Positions 4,612 to 59,857 of a DNA stretch of 64,000 nucleotides are shown piece after piece. The DNA comes from Bacillota bacterium. Lineage in GTDB: Bacteria; Bacillota; Clostridia; Saccharofermentanales; Saccharofermentanaceae. The notes beneath the pieces were generated by a model. It searched no databases and had not been told where the DNA came from. It worked only from the letters and a program-made list of their open reading frames with translations. Where the stretch lies: assembly GCA_036782995.1 (NCBI GenBank), contig DAIPXZ010000001.1, forward strand, positions 1-64,000, read 5' to 3'. A program made the position numbers and the translations under genes. Numbering within the stretch: the first letter of the stretch is position 1; each line of letters starts with the position of its first letter.

Positions 4612-5721
4612 CTAACTGGTTCTGGCGACAAAGCCAAGGTGGTCTCCGAAAACAAAAGCTGCGGATACACCAAATGCGATACTGAGCAATTTACCTTTGT
4701 CAGACATTGATTTCACCATACTGAACATCGGAACGGAATTGGCTAAATTGGCTATCATTCCCGAGCAAGCGACATCGTCTACGCCAAGCTTTTTACCGGC
4801 TTTATTCAGAGGCTTCTTGAATGCCTTTGTTATCCATTTTGCCATTGGATAAGCACCCATCAAGATAATACCGATTTGACCACAAACCAATAAAGCCTCA
4901 TCCAAATTCGTCATTCCTGTACTCTCGTTGACGGTAGACATAACACCAAAAACAGGCAAGAATATTCCGGTTATCTGCTGAACCACCGCAATTGCGGTCA
5001 ACATTGTGCCGACAATGCAGACGCCGGTACCAAAAATGTTGAAGCCTTTTATCATTGCTGTTGGTATGAACCATAACCCAAGACAGAGCAAGGCAGCAAA
5101 GATTATTACCGGGATAAGATTAATCAATATTGTGACAAAACTAATCGTATACAAAGTGATATTCATGAGTAAGCCGCCTGCGATACAGCCGAAAGGAACA
5201 CCTACCAGGCCTGCCAAAACACCGGCTGCCAGATATGGCCTGTCCTTTTTCTCGAGAATGCCCAATGCGACAGGAATTGTAAAAGTGATTGTTTGCCCCA
5301 TAACCGTTCCGAGAATCAAGCCCGAAAACATGGTCATCGTTTCATTTTTCGCCATACTTTGCGCCAAAGCATATCCACCCATATCACTGGATAAAAGAGT
5401 CGTCGCAAACATGGAGGGATCGGCACCAACAAGTGTGAAAATCGGAGTAATTATTGGCCCTAACAGCATGGAAAAAATAGGTGCGGCGGCGTATATACCA
5501 ATAAGTGCAAGACCAATCGGCCCAATGGCATTAAATCCATTATCAAATTCTTGACCGTAGCCTCTCTTGTTTCCTCGTATTTTATCGATTGCACCGATAA
5601 GCAAGAAAACCATCATTATCAGCATAATAATGGAGTTGATTGAGATGTTTTCACCAAACAGCTTCAGAGAATCAATAAAATTGTTGTTTTTTATCGTGCC
5701 AACCAGTTCACTAAAATCCAT
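4612..5721 (-). CDS. eutH: ethanolamine utilization protein EutH-family permease
   Basis: Resembles Salmonella EutH by eye along its length (GADPSMFATTLLSSDMGGYALA, IPVALGILEKKDRPYLAAGVLAGLVGVPFGCIAGG, AFGVSAAFVFGDHLGF). I moved the start to ATG 5721 (MDFSELV), which is preceded by AGGAG. Confidence 0.9.
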   Translation of the reverse strand: MDFSELVGTIKNNNFIDSLKLFGENISINSIIMLIMMVFLLIGAIDKIRGNKRGYGQEFDNGFNAIGPIGLALIGIYAAAPIFSMLLGPIITPIFTLVGADPSMFATTLLSSDMGGYALAQSMAKNETMTMFSGLILGTVMGQTITFTIPVALGILEKKDRPYLAAGVLAGLVGVPFGCIAGGLLMNITLYTISFVTILINLIPVIIFAALLCLGLWFIPTAMIKGFNIFGTGVCIVGTMLTAIAVVQQITGIFLPVFGVMSTVNESTGMTNLDEALLVCGQIGIILMGAYPMAKWITKAFKKPLNKAGKKLGVDDVACSGMIANLANSVPMFSMVKSMSDKGKLLSIAFGVSAAFVFGDHLGFVARTS

Positions 5722-6051
5722 CTTGTCACTCCTATAATGCATATATTGTGCTGTAAATCTGTTATACAGATATTTATTCATTGAATAGTGAGTTTATGTA
5801 ATGAATGATTCTGATTGTTGCAGGAGTTGCACCGAGTTTGCACACAGACAGCTTTCGTCTGTTGATGCATGTAGAAAAATACGACCTTCAATGGTTAATG
5901 AATACGGAAAATATCGCGAGCTACTTTTCGTGCTCGGCATTGAATTTGTTAAGTACTTTTAATATATCATAATATAAATTATTCTACAAGGAATTTACTT
6001 TTGCGTTCTTCGCATTACTTCTCATTTGCTAAAAGAATTCTTCAACGCAAA

Positions 6052-47524: not shown

Positions 47525-48889
47525 ATGCCTTTTTCAAAGAATTTTATGTGGGGCGTTGCCTCTGCCGCATTTCAGCTCGAGGGAGCCTGGAATGAAGATG
47601 GTAAGGGGGCTTCGATCTGGGACACCTATCCACATGGCTATGACAACGTCGTAAAGTATAACGAGACAGCCGATGTCGCATGTGACCACTATCATCACAT
47701 GAAAGAAGATGTCGCCTTGTTGAAAGAAATGGGCGTGAAGAATTATCGATTCTCCATTTCCTGGCCGAGAATTTTGCCAAACGGCACAGGCGAGGTGAAT
47801 CCGAAGGGAATCGCATTCTACTCCGACTTAATTGACGAATTACTGAAAAACGACATTCAGCCGCTTGTTACGATTTTTCATTGGGATTTTCCACAAGCAC
47901 TTTACGATCGCGGTGGCTGGCTGAATCCCGATGTCGCAGAATGGTTTTCCGAATACACACGTGTTCTGGTTGATGCATTTTCCGATCGAGTCACTTATTG
48001 GATGACGATTAACGAACCGCAAATATTTGTCGGATCGGGTTACAAGATGGGGATGCATGCCCCATTCCTAAAGCTTCACGATCGAGATGTCGGAATCATT
48101 TCCAAAAACGTTTTGTTGGCACACGGTCGAGCTGTCCAAACGATTCGCGCATTTGCAAAGAAGAAACCGATGGTTTCTTTCGCGATAACCGGTCCGACAT
48201 TCGAACCGCTTTCCAATTCTCCCGAAGATATCGAGAGTGCACGCGAAATGTCTTTTGCGCTTCGTAAAGAGAATTACACTTTATCGAATTCATGGTGGGC
48301 CGATCCGATGATCCTCGGACATTTCCCACAGCAAGCATATGATGAGCTCGGCGATGCTATGCCGGTCATCTCCGCCGACGAATGGAAGATAATTACGGCT
48401 CCATTGGATTTTTACGGCACAAATATCTATAACCGCATCCCCCGTTTCGATAATGCCGGTTTTCATAACAAAGGCTTCGAGGGATTTGCGCGCACGGCAA
48501 ACCGTTGGGAAGTCACCCCGGATGTTCTCTATTGGTCGCCGAAGTTCCTTTATGAGCGCTATCACCTACCGATAATGATTACTGAGAACGGAATGGCAAA
48601 TTGCGATTGGGTACACTTGGACGGTACGGTCCCGGATGATGCAAGAATCGATTATACCACTCGTTATCTTCGTTCCTTTCATCGTGCTGAAGAAGAGGGA
48701 ATTCCACTTGTCGGATATATGCACTGGTCCTTTATGGATAATTTTGAATGGGCAGAGGGATACGATATGCGTTTCGGTCTTGTCCATGTTGATTATCAAA
48801 CACAAAAGCGCACGCTGAAAAAATCTGCCTATTGGTATAAGGATGTCATGGCGACGAACGGCGATCGTGCATTACTACATGATAACTAA
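47525..48889 (+). CDS. GH1 beta-glucosidase / 6-phospho-beta-glucosidase
   Basis: FMWGVASAAFQLEGAWNEDGKG, the acid/base region TINEPQ, and the nucleophile in ITENGMA. Confidence 0.9.
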   Translation: MPFSKNFMWGVASAAFQLEGAWNEDGKGASIWDTYPHGYDNVVKYNETADVACDHYHHMKEDVALLKEMGVKNYRFSISWPRILPNGTGEVNPKGIAFYSDLIDELLKNDIQPLVTIFHWDFPQALYDRGGWLNPDVAEWFSEYTRVLVDAFSDRVTYWMTINEPQIFVGSGYKMGMHAPFLKLHDRDVGIISKNVLLAHGRAVQTIRAFAKKKPMVSFAITGPTFEPLSNSPEDIESAREMSFALRKENYTLSNSWWADPMILGHFPQQAYDELGDAMPVISADEWKIITAPLDFYGTNIYNRIPRFDNAGFHNKGFEGFARTANRWEVTPDVLYWSPKFLYERYHLPIMITENGMANCDWVHLDGTVPDDARIDYTTRYLRSFHRAEEEGIPLVGYMHWSFMDNFEWAEGYDMRFGLVHVDYQTQKRTLKKSAYWYKDVMATNGDRALLHDN

Positions 48890-48965
48890 GTTCTTCCATT
48901 CATACTGGCTATCGTTTACGTGACATTCTAGGACGATTATGTTGCCTATAATGCAGTAAATAAAG

Positions 48966-49041
48966 AGCAAAAGCATGAGAACCTTAGGTTAGCTTCTCCT
49001 CCAAGAGAATCGCCTGCTTCCTGGGTTCACGTGCTTTTGCT
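48966..49041. terminator. long imperfect inverted repeat between convergent genes (probable bidirectional terminator)
   Basis: The arms AGCAAAAGCATGAGAACC and GGTTCACGTGCTTTTGCT pair over 18 positions (1 mismatch, 1 G-U) around a 40-nt interior. T-rich tracts follow on both strands. Confidence 0.4.
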
Positions 49042-49067
49042 TTATTCTTTGCTTTTTTATGTAAATG

Positions 49068-50534
49068 TTACAACACCGGCTTTTCGAGTGCATTCTCCAA
49101 TGCATCGATGATGATCTCGATGGTTTTTACGCGGGCATAAAGCTTATCATTGCCTTCAATAATATGCCAGGGCGCATATTCCGTCGATGTTTTCTGTAGC
49201 ATATCATTGACGGCCTCTTCGTATGCATCCCATTTCTCGCGGTTACGCCAATCTTCGTCTGTGATCTTCCATTGCTTTTCAGGTGTTTCTTGGCGTTCGT
49301 TGAAACGAGCAAGCTGGACGTCTTTATCAATTTGAAGCCAAAATTTTATCACGATTGTGCCTTCCGATGCCAACTGATATTCAAATTCATTCATTTCACG
49401 GTAGGCGCGTTTCCATTCCTTTTGATCGCAAAAGCCTTCTATGCGTTCTACCATAACACGCCCGTACCACGTACGGTCAAAAAGTGCTATATGCCCGGTT
49501 TTCGGCATTTTCTCCCAGAAACGCCATAAATAATGGCGATTCTTTTCTGGTGGGGTCGGCGATGCAACAGGATTTACTTCATATCCGCGTGCATCGAGTG
49601 CTTGCGTCACGCGTTTTATGGCACCACCCTTCCCTGCTGCGTCCCATCCTTCAAAAAGCAAGACGACGGGGATGTGGCGGGCGTAGATGTGATTATGAAG
49701 CTCACGCAGACGTTTCTGATCCTTTTTCAGACGCTCCTCGTAGTCTTCGCGGGGTAGCGCAAGAGATAGGTCAACCTCGTGTAGAAGCGGCATAGATATC
49801 GGCTTCGGGAGTTTCGGTACATATTTTGCAACCGCTTTCTTGTCGATTCCGTTGTGCAAACGATCGGAGATGGCGTCGATTAAATAGCGAAGTGCGTAGA
49901 ATTCACTGATAAGTGGTTTTTTCGCTTCGATAACATGCCATGGAGCAAAAGGCGAATCCGTCTTTTCCATTATTTCTTGGTAAGCCGCCTTAACTTCGCA
50001 ATAGTTCTTCGCTTCCCATGCATCATGCTCTGAAACCCGCCATGCGGTTGCTTGGTCAGCGAGCAGGCGATTGAGTCTGCATTTCTGTTCATCTTCATCG
50101 ATATTCAGGAAGATTTTCACTAAAAGATATCCGTTTTCAGTCAATGACCGCTCAAATTGCTTAACAAATTCGATACGACGCTTATATGTATCTGACGTGA
50201 TGCTTCGTTCCAAATTTGAAGTAGCTAGAATTGACGGCCATCCGCTATCTAGGAACGTGAACTTTCCTTGTTCAGGAATGGTTCGAAAATAGCGATAAAG
50301 AAAGTGTCTTCTCGTTTCTTCCGGACTCGGACGATCCATAGAACAGACGCGATAAAAGCGCGGATCGATACAAGTAATTAAGCGATTAATCAATGAACCC
50401 TTGCCCGATGCGGCAAAGCCTTCCACGAGAACAAATACTGAAATCCCCGCCTTTTTGATTTCCTGTTGTAGAGTAAGGAGTTCTCCTTGCATTTCTGAAA
50501 TTTCTGCCTTCATCTGCTTTTTTTCTTCACGCAT
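49068..50534 (-). CDS. tandem-domain PPK2-family polyphosphate:nucleotide phosphotransferase
   Basis: Two PPK2 repeats, each with a P-loop-like motif (VLVEGFAASGKGS and LLFEGWDAAGKGG). Start at ATG 50534, behind AAGGAGG. It overlaps the upstream gene stop (ATGCGTGA). Confidence 0.85.
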   Translation of the reverse strand: MREEKKQMKAEISEMQGELLTLQQEIKKAGISVFVLVEGFAASGKGSLINRLITCIDPRFYRVCSMDRPSPEETRRHFLYRYFRTIPEQGKFTFLDSGWPSILATSNLERSITSDTYKRRIEFVKQFERSLTENGYLLVKIFLNIDEDEQKCRLNRLLADQATAWRVSEHDAWEAKNYCEVKAAYQEIMEKTDSPFAPWHVIEAKKPLISEFYALRYLIDAISDRLHNGIDKKAVAKYVPKLPKPISMPLLHEVDLSLALPREDYEERLKKDQKRLRELHNHIYARHIPVVLLFEGWDAAGKGGAIKRVTQALDARGYEVNPVASPTPPEKNRHYLWRFWEKMPKTGHIALFDRTWYGRVMVERIEGFCDQKEWKRAYREMNEFEYQLASEGTIVIKFWLQIDKDVQLARFNERQETPEKQWKITDEDWRNREKWDAYEEAVNDMLQKTSTEYAPWHIIEGNDKLYARVKTIEIIIDALENALEKPVL

Positions 50535-51678
50535 ACGATTGTACCTCCTTGTACTTCTCATCGACTCGATTCATTAATTCGAGTTCATCAAGGATTTCCC
50601 CTTGATATGGGTACGTATTCCTCATGCTCTCGAATTGTTCACGTATGTTTTGGGCGTCATTCGTATTATTGTCCTCGAGTAACGCCTTCGCATATTGATA
50701 GCGCAAAACGGTAGGATTTTCCTTCATCTTCTGAATGAAGTCCATTGTTGTTTTTGATAAAAAAGAGTTCCGTTCATCTTTGGGCTGTTCGGTAAGCAAT
50801 GAAAGGTAGGTTAACTCCATATCGATAAAGGCACCTATTATTCCGCTTCTTGGTATCTCCGTATGATTATGAAGCCACTTTAGTTTTTCATAAGCTTCAT
50901 CTAATCGACCATTGATGATGTAATAGCAACAACTGTTTACGTATTGCGTGGTAATTATTGCTGTCGTCATCTCTTTTTCCGTAGGAAAAAAGTAATTGGC
51001 TTCGTCTATATCTTTCATGCGAGCATCTTCAGCGTATTCCGCAAGTGTAATCATCTGTGTGTAGAATACACGAATCATCAATGGGTTACGTTTACAGGCC
51101 AAGATATTCGCTCCGTCGTTATTCAACATTTTGCCGGAAAACGGAATGCCATTTATTACGGCAGGAATCAACGCCATTGCCGCAGCAGTGATAAAAAACG
51201 CACGGCTAATCGGTGCAATCGGCAAGAGACAGAGTCCGCCAAATATACCGGCACACAACATGTTCATGAGCACTCCGCCGAGTTGATAAAGATTAATCGG
51301 ATTTTTTCCGTTCTCTTGATATAGCGGTGGTTTCATTAAGCATTGACCCGCCGTTCCGGTAAGCTTATATTTCTTGATCGCGAGCTTTCCATTCTTCTTT
51401 ATCCAAACAGTATTGTATACTCGGAAGCTTATAAAAGAATATCCGGAAATCAAGCCCGCAAACAAGTGTCCTAGTTCATGGAGAACAAGTTGAATATTAT
51501 ACAAAACAATGCTGACCATACAAAAGACAAGCGTAACCAAGAAACCATGTGTTCCAATAGAATTCGGATATGCCCCCTTTATGATCGCATTGATTATCAT
51601 CATCGAGCCAAAGTAGATGATTACCAATATTGTGCATATAAGAAAACAATTCACTGCATTGATTTTCTTTGATTCCAT
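50527..51678 (-). CDS. M50/site-2-protease-like polytopic membrane protein with a helical soluble C-terminal domain
   Basis: HELGH at aa 67-71 sits at the end of a TM helix, and a later NNDGANIL resembles the second M50 motif. It has 4-5 TM helices and then ~170 aa of helical, TPR-like sequence. Confidence 0.55.
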   Translation of the reverse strand: MESKKINAVNCFLICTILVIIYFGSMMIINAIIKGAYPNSIGTHGFLVTLVFCMVSIVLYNIQLVLHELGHLFAGLISGYSFISFRVYNTVWIKKNGKLAIKKYKLTGTAGQCLMKPPLYQENGKNPINLYQLGGVLMNMLCAGIFGGLCLLPIAPISRAFFITAAAMALIPAVINGIPFSGKMLNNDGANILACKRNPLMIRVFYTQMITLAEYAEDARMKDIDEANYFFPTEKEMTTAIITTQYVNSCCYYIINGRLDEAYEKLKWLHNHTEIPRSGIIGAFIDMELTYLSLLTEQPKDERNSFLSKTTMDFIQKMKENPTVLRYQYAKALLEDNNTNDAQNIREQFESMRNTYPYQGEILDELELMNRVDEKYKEVQSYA

Positions 51679-51714
51679 AAATACTCCTTATTGCACAAGT
51701 CTCGAACTTGTAGC

Positions 51715-53187
51715 TTATTCGGAAGACGCATCGGAGGTCGTTTTTTTGAACGGGGAGGGTCCTTCACTGTCAAATTCGGGAATATCCTCCAATCCGATTT
51801 CCAACGCAACGTCCATCGCCGATTTTGCCGGAGCTTTAGGGATATTGCTTCCAAGACTACGATCCGTTGCCGGGAAGAAGCCGGAGCCTCTTCCGAGCTG
51901 TTGACTACGTGCTTGATCAATGGATAGATAGATTTCCGAATGCTTTTCGGGGAGAGGTACAGGGGCACTCGGAATGTTGACTTGCCTTTCCAAGGCAAAT
52001 TTATCACTGTCAACACCATGATACGCTTCTTCAACATTTTTTTGATTTACAACAACCTTGGCTGGCGCAACACGTACATTTCTTTCCATGCGAATCAGAA
52101 CCTTGTCCACAGCATTTTCATTCATCGCTATATCGATTAATGCAGACGAGTTCGGAATGTCGAGGTATGCACGGCATTCCGAAGGACGATAGATGGGGCG
52201 TGAAGACGCAATCCTTCCGTTAACCGCATTCATCAGCCAATGGAATGGCTTTCCCTTCACAGTAGTTTTTATCTGCCAATAAGGGAAGTAGGTTAAGATG
52301 CCAAGGCTTTCCTCGTATTTCGACTGGTCGACATAGGACACAACCGCCGATTCTTTTTCTTCCTCACTAACCCAGATGCCGCGCACCCACAGCTTGATAT
52401 GGGCAATTAAATCATCCATGATTTCCTGACCCGACCGGTTAGGCATGACGAAAATAGCGTTATTCTTATCGACCGAATCAAAGTCTTTGCTCATCGAAAA
52501 GGAATATGGGCCAATATCATCAAACGAATCGTTACTGATATAGTCCGAAGCAGGGATTGGGATGTCGTTAAAGCGGAATTGTCCTCCGACATTTCGATCG
52601 ACATAATAACCATCTGTCGAAGACATCGGACGCATAATAGCCGTGTTCTCGACTCTCTTTTGGTTATCATTTTTGTACGTTGTAGGTACTTTTTCAGCCA
52701 AATTCTTGGTGACAATCGCACTGGTAAATGCTTCATAATCAAAGATATAAACAGGCAAGTACGTTTTCACCATCATTTCAGCGAGCTTGGTGTATTTTCC
52801 GGAAAGAAAGAACTTTTCCTTCATGGATTTTTCAAAAGCTTCCTTCGCTTCGTTCGCATCGACGTAAAATGGTACGATTTGTTGAGCCTTGGGAAAAGGG
52901 TGTTGTTTATTGTCGACCTTCGGCACTCTTTCTTTTCCGCAAACAATACAGGTCGAACGGGCGGAAGATAAATCCGTTTCCGAAAACATTATCGTCTTAC
53001 ATTGAGGACACTCATAAGAATAATAATCTCGCAACGCGCTGTATTCCGGGAAATAAAAACCACCGTCTACCTTTTCCACTTGATTCTCTGGCAAAAGCGG
53101 CGTATGACAAAACACGCATTCGTATTTATCGTGCGTGTTTGTAATAACATTAGCATGACATTTGGGGCATGCAAACGCAATATCCAT
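51715..53187 (-). CDS. double zinc-ribbon protein, uncharacterised family (short paralog, 490 aa)
   Basis: MDIAFACPKC...KYECVFCHT is the first 4-Cys ribbon and YECPQC...CIVCG the second. It shares blocks with the upstream gene. AGGAG SD. No TM or signal peptide. Confidence 0.7.
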   Translation of the reverse strand: MDIAFACPKCHANVITNTHDKYECVFCHTPLLPENQVEKVDGGFYFPEYSALRDYYSYECPQCKTIMFSETDLSSARSTCIVCGKERVPKVDNKQHPFPKAQQIVPFYVDANEAKEAFEKSMKEKFFLSGKYTKLAEMMVKTYLPVYIFDYEAFTSAIVTKNLAEKVPTTYKNDNQKRVENTAIMRPMSSTDGYYVDRNVGGQFRFNDIPIPASDYISNDSFDDIGPYSFSMSKDFDSVDKNNAIFVMPNRSGQEIMDDLIAHIKLWVRGIWVSEEEKESAVVSYVDQSKYEESLGILTYFPYWQIKTTVKGKPFHWLMNAVNGRIASSRPIYRPSECRAYLDIPNSSALIDIAMNENAVDKVLIRMERNVRVAPAKVVVNQKNVEEAYHGVDSDKFALERQVNIPSAPVPLPEKHSEIYLSIDQARSQQLGRGSGFFPATDRSLGSNIPKAPAKSAMDVALEIGLEDIPEFDSEGPSPFKKTTSDASSE

Positions 53188-53256
53188 AACAATTCACTCC
53201 TATCATTCAGACGGTAAGGATGAAAAGTCTTCGTTTGAGAATGCTCGAAAGAATGA

Positions 53257-56200
53257 TTATCTTTCCCGTCTTATCGGTTTCTTGGCAAATGGGCTTGGTC
53301 CATTCGGATCAAACTTCGGAATATCGCTTAACGAACGACGAGCCGCCGCTTCCTCTTCAACGATTCCTTTGCGAATTGGATCCATTCCGCCATATGCTAG
53401 CGATGGGATCGGTCGTTCGCCGCCGTATCTTGGTAATCCTTCATCCTCAGGCGGTCGTGTACCCGTGGCGACCGGTTGTGCTGTTTCTTGCAAAGTTGTT
53501 CCTGTCGGATGTTCTGTCAAATTGCTCTCTTCTACTGTTCTGCTACCAGGACGCAGCATCACCGCAGCCATGTTTGTATTCTCCACATTGATGGTCGATT
53601 CTTTTACCGAAAATGCCGGCAGAACTTCTTCGTCCTGTTCGCGATTGCTTTCTTCGACGTCAGCCGTATGAATGGTCATCGGTACCGAGCGTGTATACTC
53701 AACCGGTTCTTCAACGGGCTGTTCCGCCTTTGGAGCAAATACGGGCGCATCCTCACTTGATGCTTTGAAAGCCGCTTGGACATTGGCCTGACGTGCCGCT
53801 TCTTCTAATGCGCGTCTCTCGCGATATGTGCGTGGACGATCGCTCGAGAATGTAATTGGAGAAGATTCATCCTCGGTGCCACGAACAGAAGTATTTACTG
53901 TTTCATCGAGCGTCGTATTCGGACGTAATGCTGAACCCGGACGTGTTGCGGCCGGTTCATTTGCGGAGGACGAAGAAGTCGATGGCTGTTTATCTTCGTC
54001 AATCGTTAACTCTTCCTTCTGATGTAATGGCATTTCTCCACCGCGGCTTGTTGCTGAATGATCGGCAGCAGCAAGAACACTATTGTTTCTCGGTTTTTCA
54101 ACATTAATTACGATATCTTGTGGCTTTGCAAAACGAGGTTTCGTATCTTCTGGTTCAGGCAATCCCGTTGATGGTGATGCCCATGTCGGAATCGGTCGAT
54201 CACTACGAATTGAACGCTCCCAAATCGGTACGGACTTCGAAGAATTCTCTTCTTGGCTTCTATGTCCACGCATGGCAGGACCACTAGTTGCTTGTGCCGC
54301 CGTCGTTGACGCTTGCGTTTCTTCCTGTGATACGCTTCTGCGCGATGCAAAAGGAGAAATCGAATCTTCCGGTCTTCCCCATGTCGGAGGCGGCGTAATT
54401 GCAGATGAAAGAGGACTACGGCTTACGGAAGACGTATCCGTTTTTGGAGTCGAAGGTGCATTGGTTGCTACCGTCGGACGGCTCGTCGTGGAATCACTAC
54501 GCGTTGACGTTCCAGGACGAGAAGCTGCCCCCGGTCGCGTCGCAGCAACGGATTCACGTGATGTCGTCGGTTCTGATGCCGAAGTCGCTTGCACTGGAGC
54601 TTTATGTTGTAATGTCGAATCTTGTGATGCCGGCACAGACATATTCGGGCGTGGCGGACGCTTTATCTGTCCGTTTTGACCAACAGTTGTAGCGGACGCA
54701 CTTGTTTTTTTTGCCCAGTCGGGTGTCTCTCCCGCTGGCATTTCACCCCAAATTGGTTTGCGTGGCATATGAATTGAATCATCTTCTGATGGTGTTGAAA
54801 CAGAACGAGCCATTTGCGCAAGCGGAGATGGTTCACGCGGAGCAAGAGGCTTCGAAACAGGCTTCGGTGTTGGCAAGACATCTTCGTCTTTCTCAACCAT
54901 AGGAAGTGGCATGTGCTTTTCTTCTTCGATAATCGGAGCCTTCTTCTCCATGAAAGAAAGAGAAAGGTGTTGCTCTTCCTTTTCAAACGTATCAGCGCCG
55001 ACAGGTGTCACTTCTTCCTTCATCGGGAGTGGTTGTGATGTTGTTTTCGGTGTCGTGGCTTTCTTGGCCTGCAAAACGATATCATCCGCTTTCTCAACCG
55101 CCGATTTAGTCTTACGTGACTTATCGGGTACGATATCATCCGCAGATTCAACGATGCCCTTCTTGGTAGTCGACTTTAATGAATCATCGGTATCATTGTC
55201 TGCACGTGATACAGTAGTCGTCGCGTTTTTCTCTTCCGTACTCGGTTGTTCCATCGCGGCTTCACGACGCTTCAGCTCTCTAAGTGCGCTGAGTGGCAAG
55301 GAATTGATTGTCTCGGCATCCAAATCAGCAAGAGTCAAGCCATCCAGATTCATCAATGGAGATGCTATTTGCGTAGACTGTACATCCGACATATTCGAAA
55401 TATATGCGGACTCCCACGCTGGATGGTTTTGTTCCATAGTCTTCGACGAGGAAAGAGTCGATGCCGGAGCTTGAACGGCTTCGATTGGTTGCTCTTCTTC
55501 ACCATTCACCTTCGCCTTCATGCTGGATACTTTCTTTTCCGGAACATGTGCACCAAATGCGTTCACGCTTGCGTCTTGCGGGCGATCCCATACCGGTACC
55601 TGTGTTTCTTTTTTCTCGATGGCAGGCTTCTTTGTTCGAACGGTACGATTGCTGTTTGGAACAGCGACCTCCGTCGGCTTCGAGTTCTTCGCCCACGCCG
55701 GTGCTTCCACTGCAGCTTTCATCTCGCCCGGATTTTCCTTGGCTGCTGCTTTAATGGCAGCTGGTCGAGTAATCGGTTCCAGTTTCTTTTTCTGAGGCAT
55801 CTTCGTTAAATCGCTAATATTGGTCACAATCGGAATATCAAGAAGTGGCGCACCCTCTGGGCGATTTGCCGCTTCAGCACGACGTTTTTCCATTGCCTCA
55901 GCGCGTTTCTTCGCCTCTTCATCTGCCTTAATGTCTGCCTCCGTTGCGGTGTGAACCATCAACTGCGCATCAAAATCATCCGGCTTCTTTGGTTTTCTTG
56001 TTTTCGGCTTCTCAAAGAAGGAGTAATCAAGAATTTCGTGCGCTGGATTATATAGATCGAACTCAAAGTGTGTGTCCTTCAATGCCGTACAGCGGTCCAT
56101 ATTGGCATATTCGTGATATCCGGTCTTGTCATTTTGTGATGCGACCTTCGCCATCGGAATATTTGCCTCGACGACACCGTTTTGAGCATTCATGGCATAG

Positions 56201-57183
56201 TGGAACTCTCTTCCTAAGTATTCGCCTCGCATAGCCCAAATCGGTAAGAGGACAAGTTCTCCGATACCAAGTGGATAATCGGTCTTATCAGAATAGAAGG
56301 AAATATCGTATTGCACAGAATGTGCGTCATATATCATTTGACGGGTCCATTTCTTGATGCGCCCCATGAACTCTTGCATCATTGAAATCGCATCTTTATA
56401 TGTCGCTACGACCGGAACATCACCCAATGCCGTTGTCGTAACCGGGACCATCTTAGAAAAATCATATGGTTGAATGTTGCGAACCGTATTGTCAGGTAAA
56501 CATCCAGTCGCGTCAAAAGGTACGCCCATCCATGATAAAACACCACCTGTGATTCTTTCGGTCGGTAGTTCCTGCGTCTCTTTGACACCGCGAAGGCTAT
56601 TATTAATCTTTTTAAAAGAAGAACGAAGCGGCATCATCAGCTCTTTTAATTGTTCCGGAGCCGCCGTGTCCAAGATTGATTGCGTAGGAATATGCTTCAA
56701 CATTGCGGTGAGTCGCACGTTCGCTAATACTTCGTAGTTAAATATCCAACACGGAACATAGACCTTCTTTAGAAGGGCCTTGTTCTCATCAGTTACCAGT
56801 GCACGTCCGACAGCCGAGTTATTTCGACAGTATTCTTCAAAAACGCTTTCCGCTTTTTGTCGATTGTAGGAAAACAGAATCATTCGACGTGGCATCGCCC
56901 CTAGCGCCGGGCCCTTATCCGTAAGCTTCGAAACACCACAAAGTGGGCAATCCATCTTTTGACCATCTGCTACTCTTGCGAATACCTGACCACCGCATTC
57001 TTCACAGGTAAATGAATGATAAGCCTTTTCGTCCCATGCTTCACTAACGTAATATCCGCCTTCCAATTCAAGAACTTCATCTGCCGGTGTTAAATCGGTA
57101 TGGCAAAAACAGCAACGATATTTCTTCGACTCATCAAAAATCAAATCCGCCGAGCAATTCGGACAATGAAATGCTATATCCAT
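53257..57183 (-). CDS. double zinc-ribbon protein, uncharacterised family (long paralog, 1308 aa, with a ~915-aa disordered C-terminal region)
   Basis: The start is set at MDIAFHCPNC (ATG 57183) by homology with the paralog and an upstream AGGAGG. The two ribbons are CPNC...CCFC and CEEC...CPLC. From about aa 421 of the track ORF the sequence is low-complexity and rich in P/S/T/A/E/K. Confidence 0.7.
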   Translation of the reverse strand: MDIAFHCPNCSADLIFDESKKYRCCFCHTDLTPADEVLELEGGYYVSEAWDEKAYHSFTCEECGGQVFARVADGQKMDCPLCGVSKLTDKGPALGAMPRRMILFSYNRQKAESVFEEYCRNNSAVGRALVTDENKALLKKVYVPCWIFNYEVLANVRLTAMLKHIPTQSILDTAAPEQLKELMMPLRSSFKKINNSLRGVKETQELPTERITGGVLSWMGVPFDATGCLPDNTVRNIQPYDFSKMVPVTTTALGDVPVVATYKDAISMMQEFMGRIKKWTRQMIYDAHSVQYDISFYSDKTDYPLGIGELVLLPIWAMRGEYLGREFHYAMNAQNGVVEANIPMAKVASQNDKTGYHEYANMDRCTALKDTHFEFDLYNPAHEILDYSFFEKPKTRKPKKPDDFDAQLMVHTATEADIKADEEAKKRAEAMEKRRAEAANRPEGAPLLDIPIVTNISDLTKMPQKKKLEPITRPAAIKAAAKENPGEMKAAVEAPAWAKNSKPTEVAVPNSNRTVRTKKPAIEKKETQVPVWDRPQDASVNAFGAHVPEKKVSSMKAKVNGEEEQPIEAVQAPASTLSSSKTMEQNHPAWESAYISNMSDVQSTQIASPLMNLDGLTLADLDAETINSLPLSALRELKRREAAMEQPSTEEKNATTTVSRADNDTDDSLKSTTKKGIVESADDIVPDKSRKTKSAVEKADDIVLQAKKATTPKTTSQPLPMKEEVTPVGADTFEKEEQHLSLSFMEKKAPIIEEEKHMPLPMVEKDEDVLPTPKPVSKPLAPREPSPLAQMARSVSTPSEDDSIHMPRKPIWGEMPAGETPDWAKKTSASATTVGQNGQIKRPPRPNMSVPASQDSTLQHKAPVQATSASEPTTSRESVAATRPGAASRPGTSTRSDSTTSRPTVATNAPSTPKTDTSSVSRSPLSSAITPPPTWGRPEDSISPFASRRSVSQEETQASTTAAQATSGPAMRGHRSQEENSSKSVPIWERSIRSDRPIPTWASPSTGLPEPEDTKPRFAKPQDIVINVEKPRNNSVLAAADHSATSRGGEMPLHQKEELTIDEDKQPSTSSSSANEPAATRPGSALRPNTTLDETVNTSVRGTEDESSPITFSSDRPRTYRERRALEEAARQANVQAAFKASSEDAPVFAPKAEQPVEEPVEYTRSVPMTIHTADVEESNREQDEEVLPAFSVKESTINVENTNMAAVMLRPGSRTVEESNLTEHPTGTTLQETAQPVATGTRPPEDEGLPRYGGERPIPSLAYGGMDPIRKGIVEEEAAARRSLSDIPKFDPNGPSPFAKKPIRRER

Positions 57184-57275
57184 GTTGGGTTTATCCCTCC
57201 TGTCGCGAAAGCGTGATCGCCTTACTGAGGCCTTCGCTAACGATATCTCTACTAGAGCAATTATAGTCAAACTAT

Positions 57276-57304
57276 AATATAAAGGGTGAACGGATTATTG
57301 TCAA
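57276..57304 (-). promoter_or_regulatory. near-consensus promoter TTGACA-17-TATATT upstream of the zinc-ribbon operon
   Basis: Minus strand reads aataaTTGACAataatccgttcaccctTTATATTatag. The -35 is at 57299-57304 and the -10 at 57276-57281, about 90 nt before ATG 57183. Confidence 0.45.
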
Positions 57305-57340
57305 TTATTTTTTGTTATTTACGAGTGCTGTAAAGTGTCA

Positions 57341-58270
57341 TTAAACAAAAATAATCGAACAAAAGAATATCATTATTGGCAACGTTATCACCATCAAAAG
57401 CATGCTTTGCACGACCGAGCGCGCCGCGAATTTCGGTGCGCAATTGTATTTTTCGGAAAAGATAACGTTCATCGAGCCACATGGCAAAGCACACATCAAC
57501 ACAATGACAGCGGCTGTAGTTGGCATAATCGGAACAAGGCGATACAGAATAAACATGGCAAGAAGAGCTAGTCCCGGAATGATAACCAATCGCATTAACG
57601 AAGTCACGTATGCTTTCACGTCACTTATCACCTTGAGAAATGGCAAGGTCGCGATAGACGAGCCGATGATAATCATGGAAAGCGGAATTGTCATTGCCCC
57701 AATATCGGCAACTGGGTCGACAATGATTTCCGGCAAACGGAAAGGCGAGATGAATAGTGCAATCGCCGCGACCGATGCAATCGTCACCGGGTTTAGAATC
57801 AATTGACGAAGCTCGCCCTTCTTCCCACTGACAAGATGAATACCATAGGTGTACATAAATAAGTTATATACCATATTAAATATTACGGCGAGTAATAAGC
57901 CTCTTTCTCCGTAAAGTGCATACATCAAAGGAAATCCGACAAATCCTGTGTTCGCAAAAACCGTCATCGTCACAAAGATGCGCTTCTCGTCGTCTTCAAG
58001 CGGGAGCTTCTTGCTTAATTTCCGCATGAGTACCAATGTCACGGCGTAATAACACATTGCAGCCGCACCCGTCGCCAGCATAGCCTTGACGAGCTCAATA
58101 GAATAATCATAATTTGCAGAAGAAATAATGCTGAATGGCAAGATTGCCTTTAAAAGCAATTCGGAAAGACCTTTTTGAATTCTCTCGTCAATCACGCGAA
58201 ATTTGCGAAGACAAATACCAAGTGACACCATGATAGCAAGTTTAACAATCACATATAGCAAAGCGGTCAT
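57341..58270 (-). CDS. AEC (auxin efflux carrier) family transporter
   Basis: 309 aa, about 10 TM helices in a two-repeat organisation typical of AEC permeases. Confidence 0.8.
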   Translation of the reverse strand: MTALLYVIVKLAIMVSLGICLRKFRVIDERIQKGLSELLLKAILPFSIISSANYDYSIELVKAMLATGAAAMCYYAVTLVLMRKLSKKLPLEDDEKRIFVTMTVFANTGFVGFPLMYALYGERGLLLAVIFNMVYNLFMYTYGIHLVSGKKGELRQLILNPVTIASVAAIALFISPFRLPEIIVDPVADIGAMTIPLSMIIIGSSIATLPFLKVISDVKAYVTSLMRLVIIPGLALLAMFILYRLVPIMPTTAAVIVLMCALPCGSMNVIFSEKYNCAPKFAARSVVQSMLLMVITLPIMIFFCSIIFV

Positions 58271-58345
58271 GAAAAAACTCCTTTTTCGGCTTCATTCGTC
58301 TCGGCACATACAGTCGATTATTTCGGTCGTTCCTGCCAATCGTTC

Positions 58346-59857
58346 TTATTGATCGGCCCACTTACCAGAACGTGCCACCGCGCGATTCCAAAGGTCGATG
58401 AGACGATTTTTCTCGGTCGCCTTCATATTCGGCACGAAAAGCTTATCACATGTCCTCAAGTGCCGCAATTCATCTGTCCCTTGCCAATATCCACAAGAAA
58501 TTCCGGCCATATAGGCAGCTCCTTGAGCAGTTGTTTCACGCTCACGAGGACGATCTACGGGCACATCTAGAATATCCGCCTGAAATTGCATCAAAAACGC
58601 ACTGACACTCGCGCCACCATCCACACGAAGTGAAGTAACGGCGAAGCCGGAATCTTTTTTCATAAGCTCGATGAGATCATACACTTGGTACGCAATCGCT
58701 TCAAGGCATGCACGTGCAATATGCGCTTTTCCTGTACCGCGTGTTAATCCGACAATCGTTCCGCGTGCATACATATCCCAATAAGGTGCACCAAGGCCGG
58801 AAAAGGCCGGTACCAGATACACACCAGCATTATCTTCGACCGATTCGGCAAGCGTATCACATTCCGAAGCACGCGAAATCATCTGCATTTCGTCTCTTAG
58901 CCATTGAATTGTGGAGCCACCATTAAAAACACTGCCTTCAAGAGCGTAGGTGGTTTTCCCGTTTAGTGTCCAAGCGGCTGACGTAAGAAGGCCGTTTTCG
59001 GAGGAAACGATATTCTCACCTGTATTCATGAGGCAAAAGCAACCCGTTCCATACGTGTTTTTCAGATCGCCGGGGTCAAGTGCCATTTGCCCGAAAAGCG
59101 CGGCAGGCTGATCGCCAATAACCGCACAAATACCAACACCGGCAAGACTTTCAATGCCAATAATGCCTTCCGTTACTGTGCCAAAATCAGAAGCCGACGG
59201 CTGCGCCTCCGGAAGCAGGTTCATCGGGATACCAAAAAGCGCACATAGCTCCGCATCCCACGATAATGTATGTATATTAAAGAGCATTGTACGAGAAGCA
59301 TTGGAATAATCGGTTGCATGTGATTTGCCACCGGTTAATCGATATATGAGCCAGGCGTCCACGTTACCGAACATTAACTCCCCTGCATCGGCCATGAGCC
59401 GTGCCCCTGGCACTTCATCGAGAATCCATTTTATCTTTGAAGCAGAAAAATAAGCGTCCATAACCAGGCCGGTCTTGGCCTTAACCTCTGCCTCTCGCCC
59501 TTCTTTTTTGAGCGTTTCGCATAGCGATGCCGTACGACGGCACTGCCAAACAATCGCGGGATAAATTGGTTTCCCGGTTTTCGCAGACCACACAATAGTC
59601 GTTTCTCTTTGGTTTGTTATGCCAATGCCAGCCACGTCGTGTCCCGTAATTCCGGCGGCGCCAAGTGCGCGATCGATAGCGGTGATGGTCGTGACCCACA
59701 AATCGTCGGGATCATGCTCGACCCAGCCCGGCTTCGGATAATGCTGGGCAAATGACTCCTGCCCGACACCGACAGCCTCGCCTTGGTGATTGAAAATGAT
59801 GCATCGTGAGCTTGTTGTTCCCTGATCAATGGCCAAAATAAACTTTTCCATGGTCAC
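58346..59857 (-). CDS. glpK: glycerol kinase
   Basis: FILAIDQGTTSSRCIIF...GITNQRETTIVW...GALFGQ...EGSVF. Full-length FGGY kinase with the GlpK pattern. Confidence 0.95.
   Translation of the reverse strand: MTMEKFILAIDQGTTSSRCIIFNHQGEAVGVGQESFAQHYPKPGWVEHDPDDLWVTTITAIDRALGAAGITGHDVAGIGITNQRETTIVWSAKTGKPIYPAIVWQCRRTASLCETLKKEGREAEVKAKTGLVMDAYFSASKIKWILDEVPGARLMADAGELMFGNVDAWLIYRLTGGKSHATDYSNASRTMLFNIHTLSWDAELCALFGIPMNLLPEAQPSASDFGTVTEGIIGIESLAGVGICAVIGDQPAALFGQMALDPGDLKNTYGTGCFCLMNTGENIVSSENGLLTSAAWTLNGKTTYALEGSVFNGGSTIQWLRDEMQMISRASECDTLAESVEDNAGVYLVPAFSGLGAPYWDMYARGTIVGLTRGTGKAHIARACLEAIAYQVYDLIELMKKDSGFAVTSLRVDGGASVSAFLMQFQADILDVPVDRPRERETTAQGAAYMAGISCGYWQGTDELRHLRTCDKLFVPNMKATEKNRLIDLWNRAVARSGKWADQ

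Follow-up and report, generated by a model that had tools for sequence, protein, structure and literature searches.

In Bacillus subtilis, YdjG is a protein of 341 amino acids (aa) with a C-terminal transmembrane (TM) tail anchor; it is controlled by sigma-W and is encoded together with PspA, the TPM protein YdjH, and the SPFH protein YdjI. YdjG and YdjH are membrane proteins that are required to bring YdjI and PspA to the membrane: YdjG binds YdjH, both are needed for the foci of YdjI and PspA, and cell-wall (peptidoglycan) synthesis is mislocalized in ydjG mutants under alkaline shock (PMC8581546). YdjG, YdjH, and YdjI have been renamed SamG, SamH, and SamI (bioRxiv 10.64898/2026.02.06.704340), and the architecture of YdjG/SamG is described in PMC11237479. 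The present analysis concerns two adjacent genes, A and B, in a stretch of 64,000 nucleotides from a Bacillota bacterium of the family Saccharofermentanaceae (assembly GCA_036782995.1, contig DAIPXZ010000001.1, positions 1 to 64,000; hereafter the window). Judged by its homology, the module that A and B have in common is of the YdjG/SamG family. What is new is an anchorless, duplicated variant of this family with a giant low-complexity tail and a conserved terminal peptide; no published description of anchorless, long-tailed YdjG/SamG variants was found in the literature.

A and B share with YdjG its whole cytoplasmic part, which comprises two N-terminal C4 zinc ribbons and a YpeB/PepSY-like alpha+beta domain of ~250 aa, and the family blocks YxPxW...Y and LLPxW...G..F.F.MNGQTG are common to both. 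In contrast to YdjG, neither A nor B has a TM helix, and their heads continue into tails, ~150 aa long in B and ~900 aa long in A, with a conserved peptide at the end; neither the tails nor the terminal peptide have a counterpart in YdjG. The genomic setting differs as well, A and B being a duplicated adjacent pair behind a sigma-A-type promoter, with no TPM, SPFH, or PspA gene nearby. The SamG scaffold can thus exist without its membrane anchor, carrying a terminal peptide and a very long low-complexity tail instead. Together with the genes for an M50-type protein (C) and a two-domain PPK2 (D), A and B make up four consecutive genes on the minus strand, present as an earlier note on this DNA had described them:

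53257..57183, minus strand: gene A, an open reading frame (ORF) of 1308 aa from the MDIAF ATG; YdjG/SamG-like head, long low-complexity tail, and C-terminal peptide motif
51715..53187, minus strand: gene B, an ORF of 490 aa; paralogous head (aa 1-334), helical/low-complexity C-terminal third, and the same terminal motif
50527..51678, minus strand: gene C, 383 aa; polytopic M50-type metalloprotease-like protein with a soluble C-terminal domain; HELGH at aa 67-71
49068..50534, minus strand: gene D, 488 aa; two-domain PPK2, polyphosphate:AMP phosphotransferase

The cluster is best viewed as an operon built by accretion of three independent units. The first would be the always-adjacent A-B pair, cytoplasmic paralogs of the envelope-stress scaffold YdjG/SamG. 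The second would be the stand-alone M50-type intramembrane metalloprotease gene C, with a helical TPR-like C-terminal domain, which lies beside A-B only in the window's species, and the third a polyphosphate:AMP phosphotransferase gene of the neighborhood that lies directly behind C only in that species. C and PPK2 would merely be co-transcribed with A-B there. Taken as a joint statement, with the mechanism proposed below for A and B included, this reading is favored with some reserve. Taken jointly, the homology, the architecture, the loss of the anchor, the conservation of motif and promoter, the synteny pattern, and the early duplication of A and B are held with high confidence.

The YdjG/SamG head without its anchor

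BLASTP aligns aa 1-346 of A with aa 1-334 of B (E 3e-38, 25% identity) and gives a second local match between the two C-termini. The two proteins are therefore paralogs, as the earlier note had proposed, but the module that they share is shorter than it had supposed, with ~340 alignable aa rather than ~420. In A, the head occupies the following positions:

56146..57183, minus strand: head of A, aa 1-346; two C4 zinc ribbons, then two helix-plus-beta-sheet units

The ribbon cysteines of A are C7/C10/C24/C27 and C60/C63/C79/C82. In alignments of 129 and of 104 family members, each of the eight is either invariant or conserved to at least 90%, and the ribbons appear as beta-hairpins in the predicted models, which bears out the two four-cysteine ribbons that had been read in A and B. 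The central YpeB-related alpha+beta domain is present in both heads and is homologous in sequence to that of B. subtilis YdjG. The AlphaFold2 (AF2) model of B has a mean predicted local distance difference test (pLDDT) score of 77.8.

The module had been regarded as one of no recognized function, a view that is overturned by full-length homology to a studied protein. The head of A aligns with B. subtilis YdjG end to end over 346 aa (BLASTP E 8e-23), an A/B profile aligns with YdjG residues 1-311, i.e., all but the TM helix (hhalign probability 100%, E 9e-40), and B finds YdjG with a phmmer E of 1.2e-11; the heads are only ~21% identical to YdjG. The YdjG sequence was taken from a metagenome contig with pspA-ydjGHI, located by using a published ydjG primer as probe. 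An exhaustive HMMER search with the A/B profile returns 2361 cluster representatives at E<=1e-3, 639 at E<=1e-10, and only 10 at E<=1e-30; A and B make up a small branch within the family. Members that were looked up are named in their sources as “hypothetical,” “zinc ribbon domain-containing,” or “TFIIB-type zinc ribbon-containing protein”; neither Pfam nor NCBIfam has a model for the YdjG/SamG family, and no papers were found under the name “TFIIB-type zinc ribbon-containing protein.” About 2400 sequence clusters thus become assignable to the YdjG/SamG family, part of the Firmicutes PspA-SPFH membrane-stress machinery.

A typical family member is ~350 aa long and ends in a hydrophobic helix, i.e., is tail-anchored. 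None of the A-type orthologs readable in full, and no B-type ortholog, has the TM helix found in most of the rest of the family. The maxima of hydropathy (Kyte-Doolittle, 19-residue mean) are 1.04 in A and 0.85 in B, as against 2.63 in C; no segment of A or B is at or above 1.6, in agreement with the earlier statement that neither has a TM helix. The helix that follows the head of B (aa 335-371), examined as a possible membrane-binding amphipathic helix, has a hydrophobic moment of ~0.45-0.54 and a negative mean hydrophobicity.

Other searches with A and B return little. Scans against Pfam, NCBIfam, PADLOC, and PHROGs yield only sub-threshold zinc-ribbon matches, a PDB sequence search with the A/B profile gives nothing below E 0.18, Foldseek against PDB finds no match, and a word-indexed homolog search with B returns B alone. 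In BFVD, the B model matches two giant-virus proteins that are both annotated as “DnaJ-like subfamily C member 3,” A0A5K0UBJ7 (Yasminevirus) and A0A3G4ZSZ8 (Edafosvirus), with Foldseek E values of 5e-7 and 2.5e-5 and low TM-scores (0.28-0.42). These are either YdjG-like heads in giant viruses or matches driven by the zinc ribbons.

Elsewhere in the family, the head is tied to TPM and SPFH proteins. Among the 150 best representatives, six (P0014, P0069, P0070, P0088, P0110, and P0135) have a YdjG-like head fused to a TPM domain, and in Lactococcus (locus L046, 4743-7949) a YdjG-like gene is flanked by a Band_7_1 (SPFH) gene on one side and a TPM gene on the other, an order that mirrors ydjI/ydjG/ydjH of the B. 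subtilis operon. The fusions and the Lactococcus trio support the functional link seen in B. subtilis. The TPM fusions have the same head as A and B but keep one or more TM helices.

These ties raise the possibility that A and B are soluble SamG variants within a PspA-SPFH-TPM module that is encoded elsewhere, and that they are recruited to the TPM protein and bring SPFH and PspA to the stressed membrane. Such a role would agree with the full-length homology of the heads to YdjG, with the fusions and gene order just described, and with the binding of YdjH by YdjG and the need for both in YdjI/PspA focus formation (PMC8581546). However, searches with B. subtilis and Lactococcus queries (tblastn, phmmer) find no PspA, TPM, or SPFH/Band_7_1 gene in the 64-kb window or in the 21-kb loci of its relatives, the promoter is sigma-A-like with no sigma-W-like site upstream, and the low identity to YdjG and the tails and peptide that YdjG lacks also count against it. 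A role of this kind is somewhat unlikely.

Tails, terminal peptide, and a proposed scaffold

Past the head, A and B differ greatly in length and resemble each other again only at the very end. The tail features are as follows:

56005..56091, minus strand: A-type-specific conserved extension, aa 365-393, CTALKDTHFEF..LYNPAHEILDYSFFEKP; low-confidence model
53329..56001, minus strand: low-complexity tail of A, aa 395-1285
54715..54771, minus strand: most conserved tail island of A, aa 805-823, HMPRKPIWGEMPAGETPDW; two P-x-W motifs; mean identity 0.69
53278..53325, minus strand: C-terminal motif of A, aa 1287-1302, DIPKFDPNGPSPFAKK
51742..51786, minus strand: C-terminal motif of B, aa 468-482, DIPEFDSEGPSPFKK

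The tail of A (aa 395-1308) consists to 51% of A, P, S, E, and T, a composition that suggests that this ~900-aa tail is disordered. Over most of the tail, column identity among the 23 A orthologs is 0.15-0.3. Three islands stand out: aa 365-393, where it is 0.70-0.88, then aa 805-823, and lastly the terminal motif. All eight tryptophans of the tail are in a P-x-W context. The tails of the 23 orthologs have 7-10 tryptophans each, and 131 of the 171 are in P-x-W, typically as [VK]P[IL]WE[RK] or P[SA]WAK.

The terminal motif has the nearly invariant consensus [LIM]P[DEK][FY]D[PS]xGP[SN]PF[KR]. Every complete A or B ortholog with a readable end carries it, 1-10 residues before the C-terminus, and it is this motif that gives the second BLASTP match between A and B. 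In the AF2 model of B, its pLDDT is ~64-70, compared with ~44 just upstream. A search of the window and all fetched loci finds the motif only in A, B, and P0007-type proteins. P0007 (NLT11968.1, from a Clostridiaceae metagenome-assembled genome; 529 aa) has a YdjG-like head, keeps hydrophobic segments, and ends in DLPEFDPGGPNPFAKK. Peptide and membrane anchor can therefore coexist. P0007 has the head and the terminal peptide of A and B, but it retains its TM segments and is encoded by a single gene, after alaS and a HIT-family gene, rather than by a pair. By eye, the hydrophobic segments are probably two TM helices (loci L040, 10001-11590, and L041, 5833-7417); the L041 copy is apparently split into two ORFs, which may reflect a frameshift or an assembly error.

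Hubs made of a linker and a terminal peptide, such as FtsZ (linker plus peptide) and SSB (linker plus acidic tip), have a folded N-terminal domain, a fast-evolving linker, and a conserved end peptide. A and B would have the same layout by analogy, with no homology and a different motif. The FtsZ C-terminal peptide has the consensus D-[IL]-P-x-F..., and the first five positions of the A/B motif, D-[LI]-P-x-[FY], match it. The terminal peptide could then be a mimic of the FtsZ-type peptide that docks A-B on a division or cell-wall-synthesis hub and so links it to envelope stress. The long linker, conserved peptide, and short basic end do resemble the FtsZ layout, and ydjG-less mutants mislocalize peptidoglycan synthesis under alkaline shock (PMC8581546). 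Against this, the rest of the motif, D-P-x-G-P-[SN]-P-F, is unlike the hydrophobic/basic continuation of FtsZ, a PDB sequence search with the peptide gives no match, and the likeness is a resemblance only. No FtsZ gene is present in the window or in the fetched loci of relatives. Mimicry of FtsZ is very improbable.

The role of the A-B pair is likely that of a cytoplasmic multivalent scaffold. The heads of A and B would serve as binding platforms for other proteins, in the way that YdjG does for YdjH, and the two proteins would act jointly, probably as a hetero-oligomer. The C-terminal peptide that they share would tether both to one common partner in place of the lost anchor, and the multivalent P-x-W tail of A would recruit or cluster further copies of a ligand near the membrane. 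This mechanism (heads as platforms, joint action, peptide docking, and P-x-W multivalency) is possible and is put forward tentatively. Quite unlikely is a more elaborate form, according to which A and B are a SamG/YdjG-derived cytoplasmic multivalent scaffold whose docking peptide replaces the TM helix and whose ~900-residue P-x-W tail clusters a partner at the membrane, possibly as a condensate-like assembly, and in which, in the window's species, the co-transcribed M50/TPR intramembrane protease recognizes the tails and controls the scaffold. The 15-residue terminal peptide offers a practical way to identify the binding targets of the SamG head and its partners, and the A-B pair, which comes from uncultured organisms, should be useful for research on PspA/SPFH membrane stress and on short linear motifs in bacteria.

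The A-B pair and its neighbors across genomes

Synteny was compared in 24 other GTDB species-level genomes and several metagenome contigs from rumen and gut Clostridia; the compared genomes are named “Clostridiales bacterium,” “Mageeibacillus sp.,” “Ruminococcaceae bacterium,” and Ca. Scatonaster. Wherever the contig is long enough to show it, A and B are direct neighbors: both heads are present in 28 loci, and B lies at a cut contig end in 6 more. The A orthologs that are readable in full have 1300-1443 aa (22 other loci), and the B orthologs, always beside A, have 513-528 aa. The backbone of the relatives' loci is malQ, glpK, an AEC transporter gene, (a GNAT gene), A, and B, followed by convergent GH1 and GT4 genes.

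Weak matches invite a reading of the cluster as a mobile, phage-derived, or anti-phage defense island: PADLOC PDC-S64 on the zinc ribbons of B (E 0.0047) and PHROG 4875 (E 0.002-0.003). These matches span the zinc ribbons only. A-B sits in a conserved housekeeping backbone (malQ, glpK, AEC transporter, GH1, GT4) in all species, its G+C content is like that of the surroundings, and neither an integrase nor repeats are seen. Such an origin is scarcely credible and is rejected on the conserved housekeeping synteny.

The window's species occurs in GCA_036796675.1, in GCA_964566825.1, and in a Joint Genome Institute (JGI) metagenome. The A-B-C-PPK2 arrangement is found in each of the three, with A at 99-100% identity. 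The relatives are arranged differently. In all loci of other species, the GH1 gene stops ~15-1000 nucleotides (nt) after B. No C homolog is found in the DNA around A-B of the relatives, which mostly covers 5-10 kb past B. In those of their loci that extend far enough, the PPK2 ortholog (50-51% identity) is ~6.5 kb from B; the GH1 and GGDEF-EAL genes, on the opposite strand, lie in between, as does a cardiolipin-synthase-like gene. The four-gene arrangement is for these reasons lineage-specific. The earlier note had called for a test of neighborhood conservation in related genomes, and it had implied a system joining the zinc-ribbon module to a site-2-protease-like protein and a polyphosphate kinase. 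The test goes against such a system: A, B, C, and PPK2 are adjacent in the window's species only, and there is no such synteny in the 24+ related species examined. A false lead is thereby removed, there being no conserved system that joins zinc-ribbon proteins, a site-2 protease, and polyphosphate. The PPK2 and M50-like genes are ordinary members of their families.

Gene D matches PF03976 (PPK2) in two stretches with E 2e-136 and scores 588.5 bits on TIGR03708, above the equivalog cutoff of 547.65, which confirms it as the tandem PPK2 that had been proposed. Like other two-domain PPK2 proteins of TIGR03708, it has both domains, with a G..GKG Walker A-like motif in each. Only its position is unusual, the relatives' copy following the cardiolipin-synthase-like gene.

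Gene C encodes a polytopic protein with hydrophobic segments at aa 3-69 and 133-181, and its HELGH (aa 67-71) lies at the end of the hydrophobic segment 40-69. H67, E68, H71, N176, P179, N187, and D188 are invariant in 44 C homologs, and G189 is at least 90% conserved; together with the hydropathy, these residues sustain its earlier description as a polytopic, M50-like HELGH protein. C resembles the site-2 proteases of the M50 type, RseP and SpoIVFB, in having an HExxH in a membrane segment and a downstream NxxP....DG, both invariant, and by analogy its NxxPxxxxDG-type motif would be the source of the third zinc ligand. It differs from them in falling below the Pfam gathering threshold (Peptidase_M50B, 15.9 bits against a cutoff of 26), in having no PDZ or CBS domain, in its ~190-aa helical C-terminal domain, and in having no conserved partner gene. 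C has no match in NCBIfam. Many of its homologs (25-35% identity) have precomputed PF02163/PF13398 matches, and one has TPR_14. The family consists of ~380-aa proteins with at most 35% identity to C, found in five unrelated neighborhoods, none with a PPK2 or YdjG-like gene. Since the catalytic-type residues are invariant, the family is probably one of active M50 proteases.

In locus L014 (4227-7134), a C homolog directly follows a 541-aa protein with matches to sigma-70 region 2 and region 4; for this homolog, control of a sigma factor, a classical task of site-2 proteases, would be a fitting role. In locus L015 (6001-8321), a 390-aa gene that has no Pfam match begins 8 nt behind a C-family gene and is possibly its tandem paralog.

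Short peptides are common ligands of TPR domains, and the helical domain of C might accordingly capture the terminal peptide or W motifs of A and B. All four genes would then form one functional system, in which A and B are substrates or adaptors of C and PPK2 supplies or senses nucleotides. The genes are indeed tightly packed: the intervals are 69 nt between A and B and 36 nt between B and C, followed by an 8-nt overlap of C and D, exactly as previously given. One promoter, good ribosome-binding sites, and the lack of an internal terminator speak for the same system, as do the retention by C of all M50 catalytic residues and a soluble C-terminal domain, the TPR annotation of one homolog, and the conserved peptide at the ends of both A and B. 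However, the peptide and P-x-W are equally conserved in 24+ species without a C-family gene around A-B, the closest relatives of C (35% identity) are in five unrelated neighborhoods that have no PPK2 or YdjG-like gene, and PPK2 is separately transcribed in the relatives. A single four-gene system is distinctly improbable.

Several points weigh against the accretion of three independent units. The tight spacing, the 8-nt C-D overlap, and the lack of an internal terminator are also compatible with a lineage-specific functional coupling, and the search for the C family in relatives covered the local A-B DNA only. The comparison genomes are distant, with ~50-60% identity in the head of A and in PPK2 and ~27% in B, and at this distance A-B-C-PPK2 may be either derived or ancestral. 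In a neighbor-joining tree, which is crude (distance-based, midpoint-rooted, and with no support values), A and B are sister clades with the window's copies basal in each, which places the A/B duplication before the split between the window's lineage and the rumen clade. The window itself holds no PspA, TPM, or SPFH gene. The mechanism of A-B is something that we infer, and nothing that would bind the terminal peptide or the P-x-W motifs was found.

The surroundings of the cluster differ from those of the relatives in further details. In loci L001, L004, L006, and L008 (~4650-5860), a divergent GNAT gene (363-405 aa) lies between the AEC transporter gene and A, and the window has no GNAT gene at this position (57305-57340). 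Likewise missing from the window's species are the GGDEF-EAL and cardiolipin-synthase-like genes, which stand between GT4 and PPK2 in the relatives; here, GT4 is followed by a HisKA_3/GerE two-component pair instead.

Transcription signals of the cluster

The signals that frame the four genes are:

57276..57304, minus strand: sigma-70-type promoter of A; -35 TTGACA at 57304-57299, 17-nt spacer, -10 TATATT at 57281-57276
57184..57275, minus strand: 5' leader of A, ending in AGGAGG; aligned with 8 orthologous upstream regions
48962..49047, no strand assigned: long hairpin between the convergent PPK2 and GH1 genes; inverted repeat 48966-48983 / 49024-49041

The promoter of A scores 11/12 and is the top site of a consensus scan that overall is not above chance (16 sites against 14.9 expected); its sequence was also read directly. 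The block TAATTGACAAT...TTTATATTATAG is identical base for base in nine species, the window's and eight others, in upstream regions that include those of L001, L004, L008, L016, L018, L019, and L039. The promoter is regarded as real because it is kept to the base in eight species in which A is only ~55-60% identical, and the near-consensus TTGACA-17-TATATT first noticed here is upheld by this conservation. No sigma-W-type promoter was found upstream of A. Good Shine-Dalgarno sequences precede each of the four starts, with AGGAGG 13 nt 5' of the ATG of A. An AAGGAGG lies 8 nt ahead of the ATG at 50534, which makes the longer ORF of D from 50561 less likely.

At the other end of the cluster, the arms of the inverted repeat are 18 nt long and 89% complementary. 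The hairpin is stable on either strand (z -3.4 for minus, -4.9 for plus), and a U-rich tract follows it in either direction; these features suit an intrinsic terminator that probably serves both of the genes converging here, PPK2 and GH1. Inside the four-gene cluster, the scan gives no convincing terminator, and the terminator scan, repeat search, and fold agree with the earlier observation that no hairpin terminator occurs before the 48966-49041 repeat. It is reasonable to regard the four genes as one transcription unit in the window's genome. No Rfam family matches 48000-58500, the hairpin included.

The leader RNA of A shows nothing unusual in its fold (z 0.0). In the window's species, this leader has ~55 nt more between the -10 box and the ribosome-binding site than in the relatives. 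The spacer between B and C (51679-51714, minus strand) contains a perfect 6-bp hairpin, ACAAGT-TCGAG-ACTTGT, just before the ribosome-binding site of C. It is not a terminator, since no U tract lies behind it, and it might modulate the translation of C.

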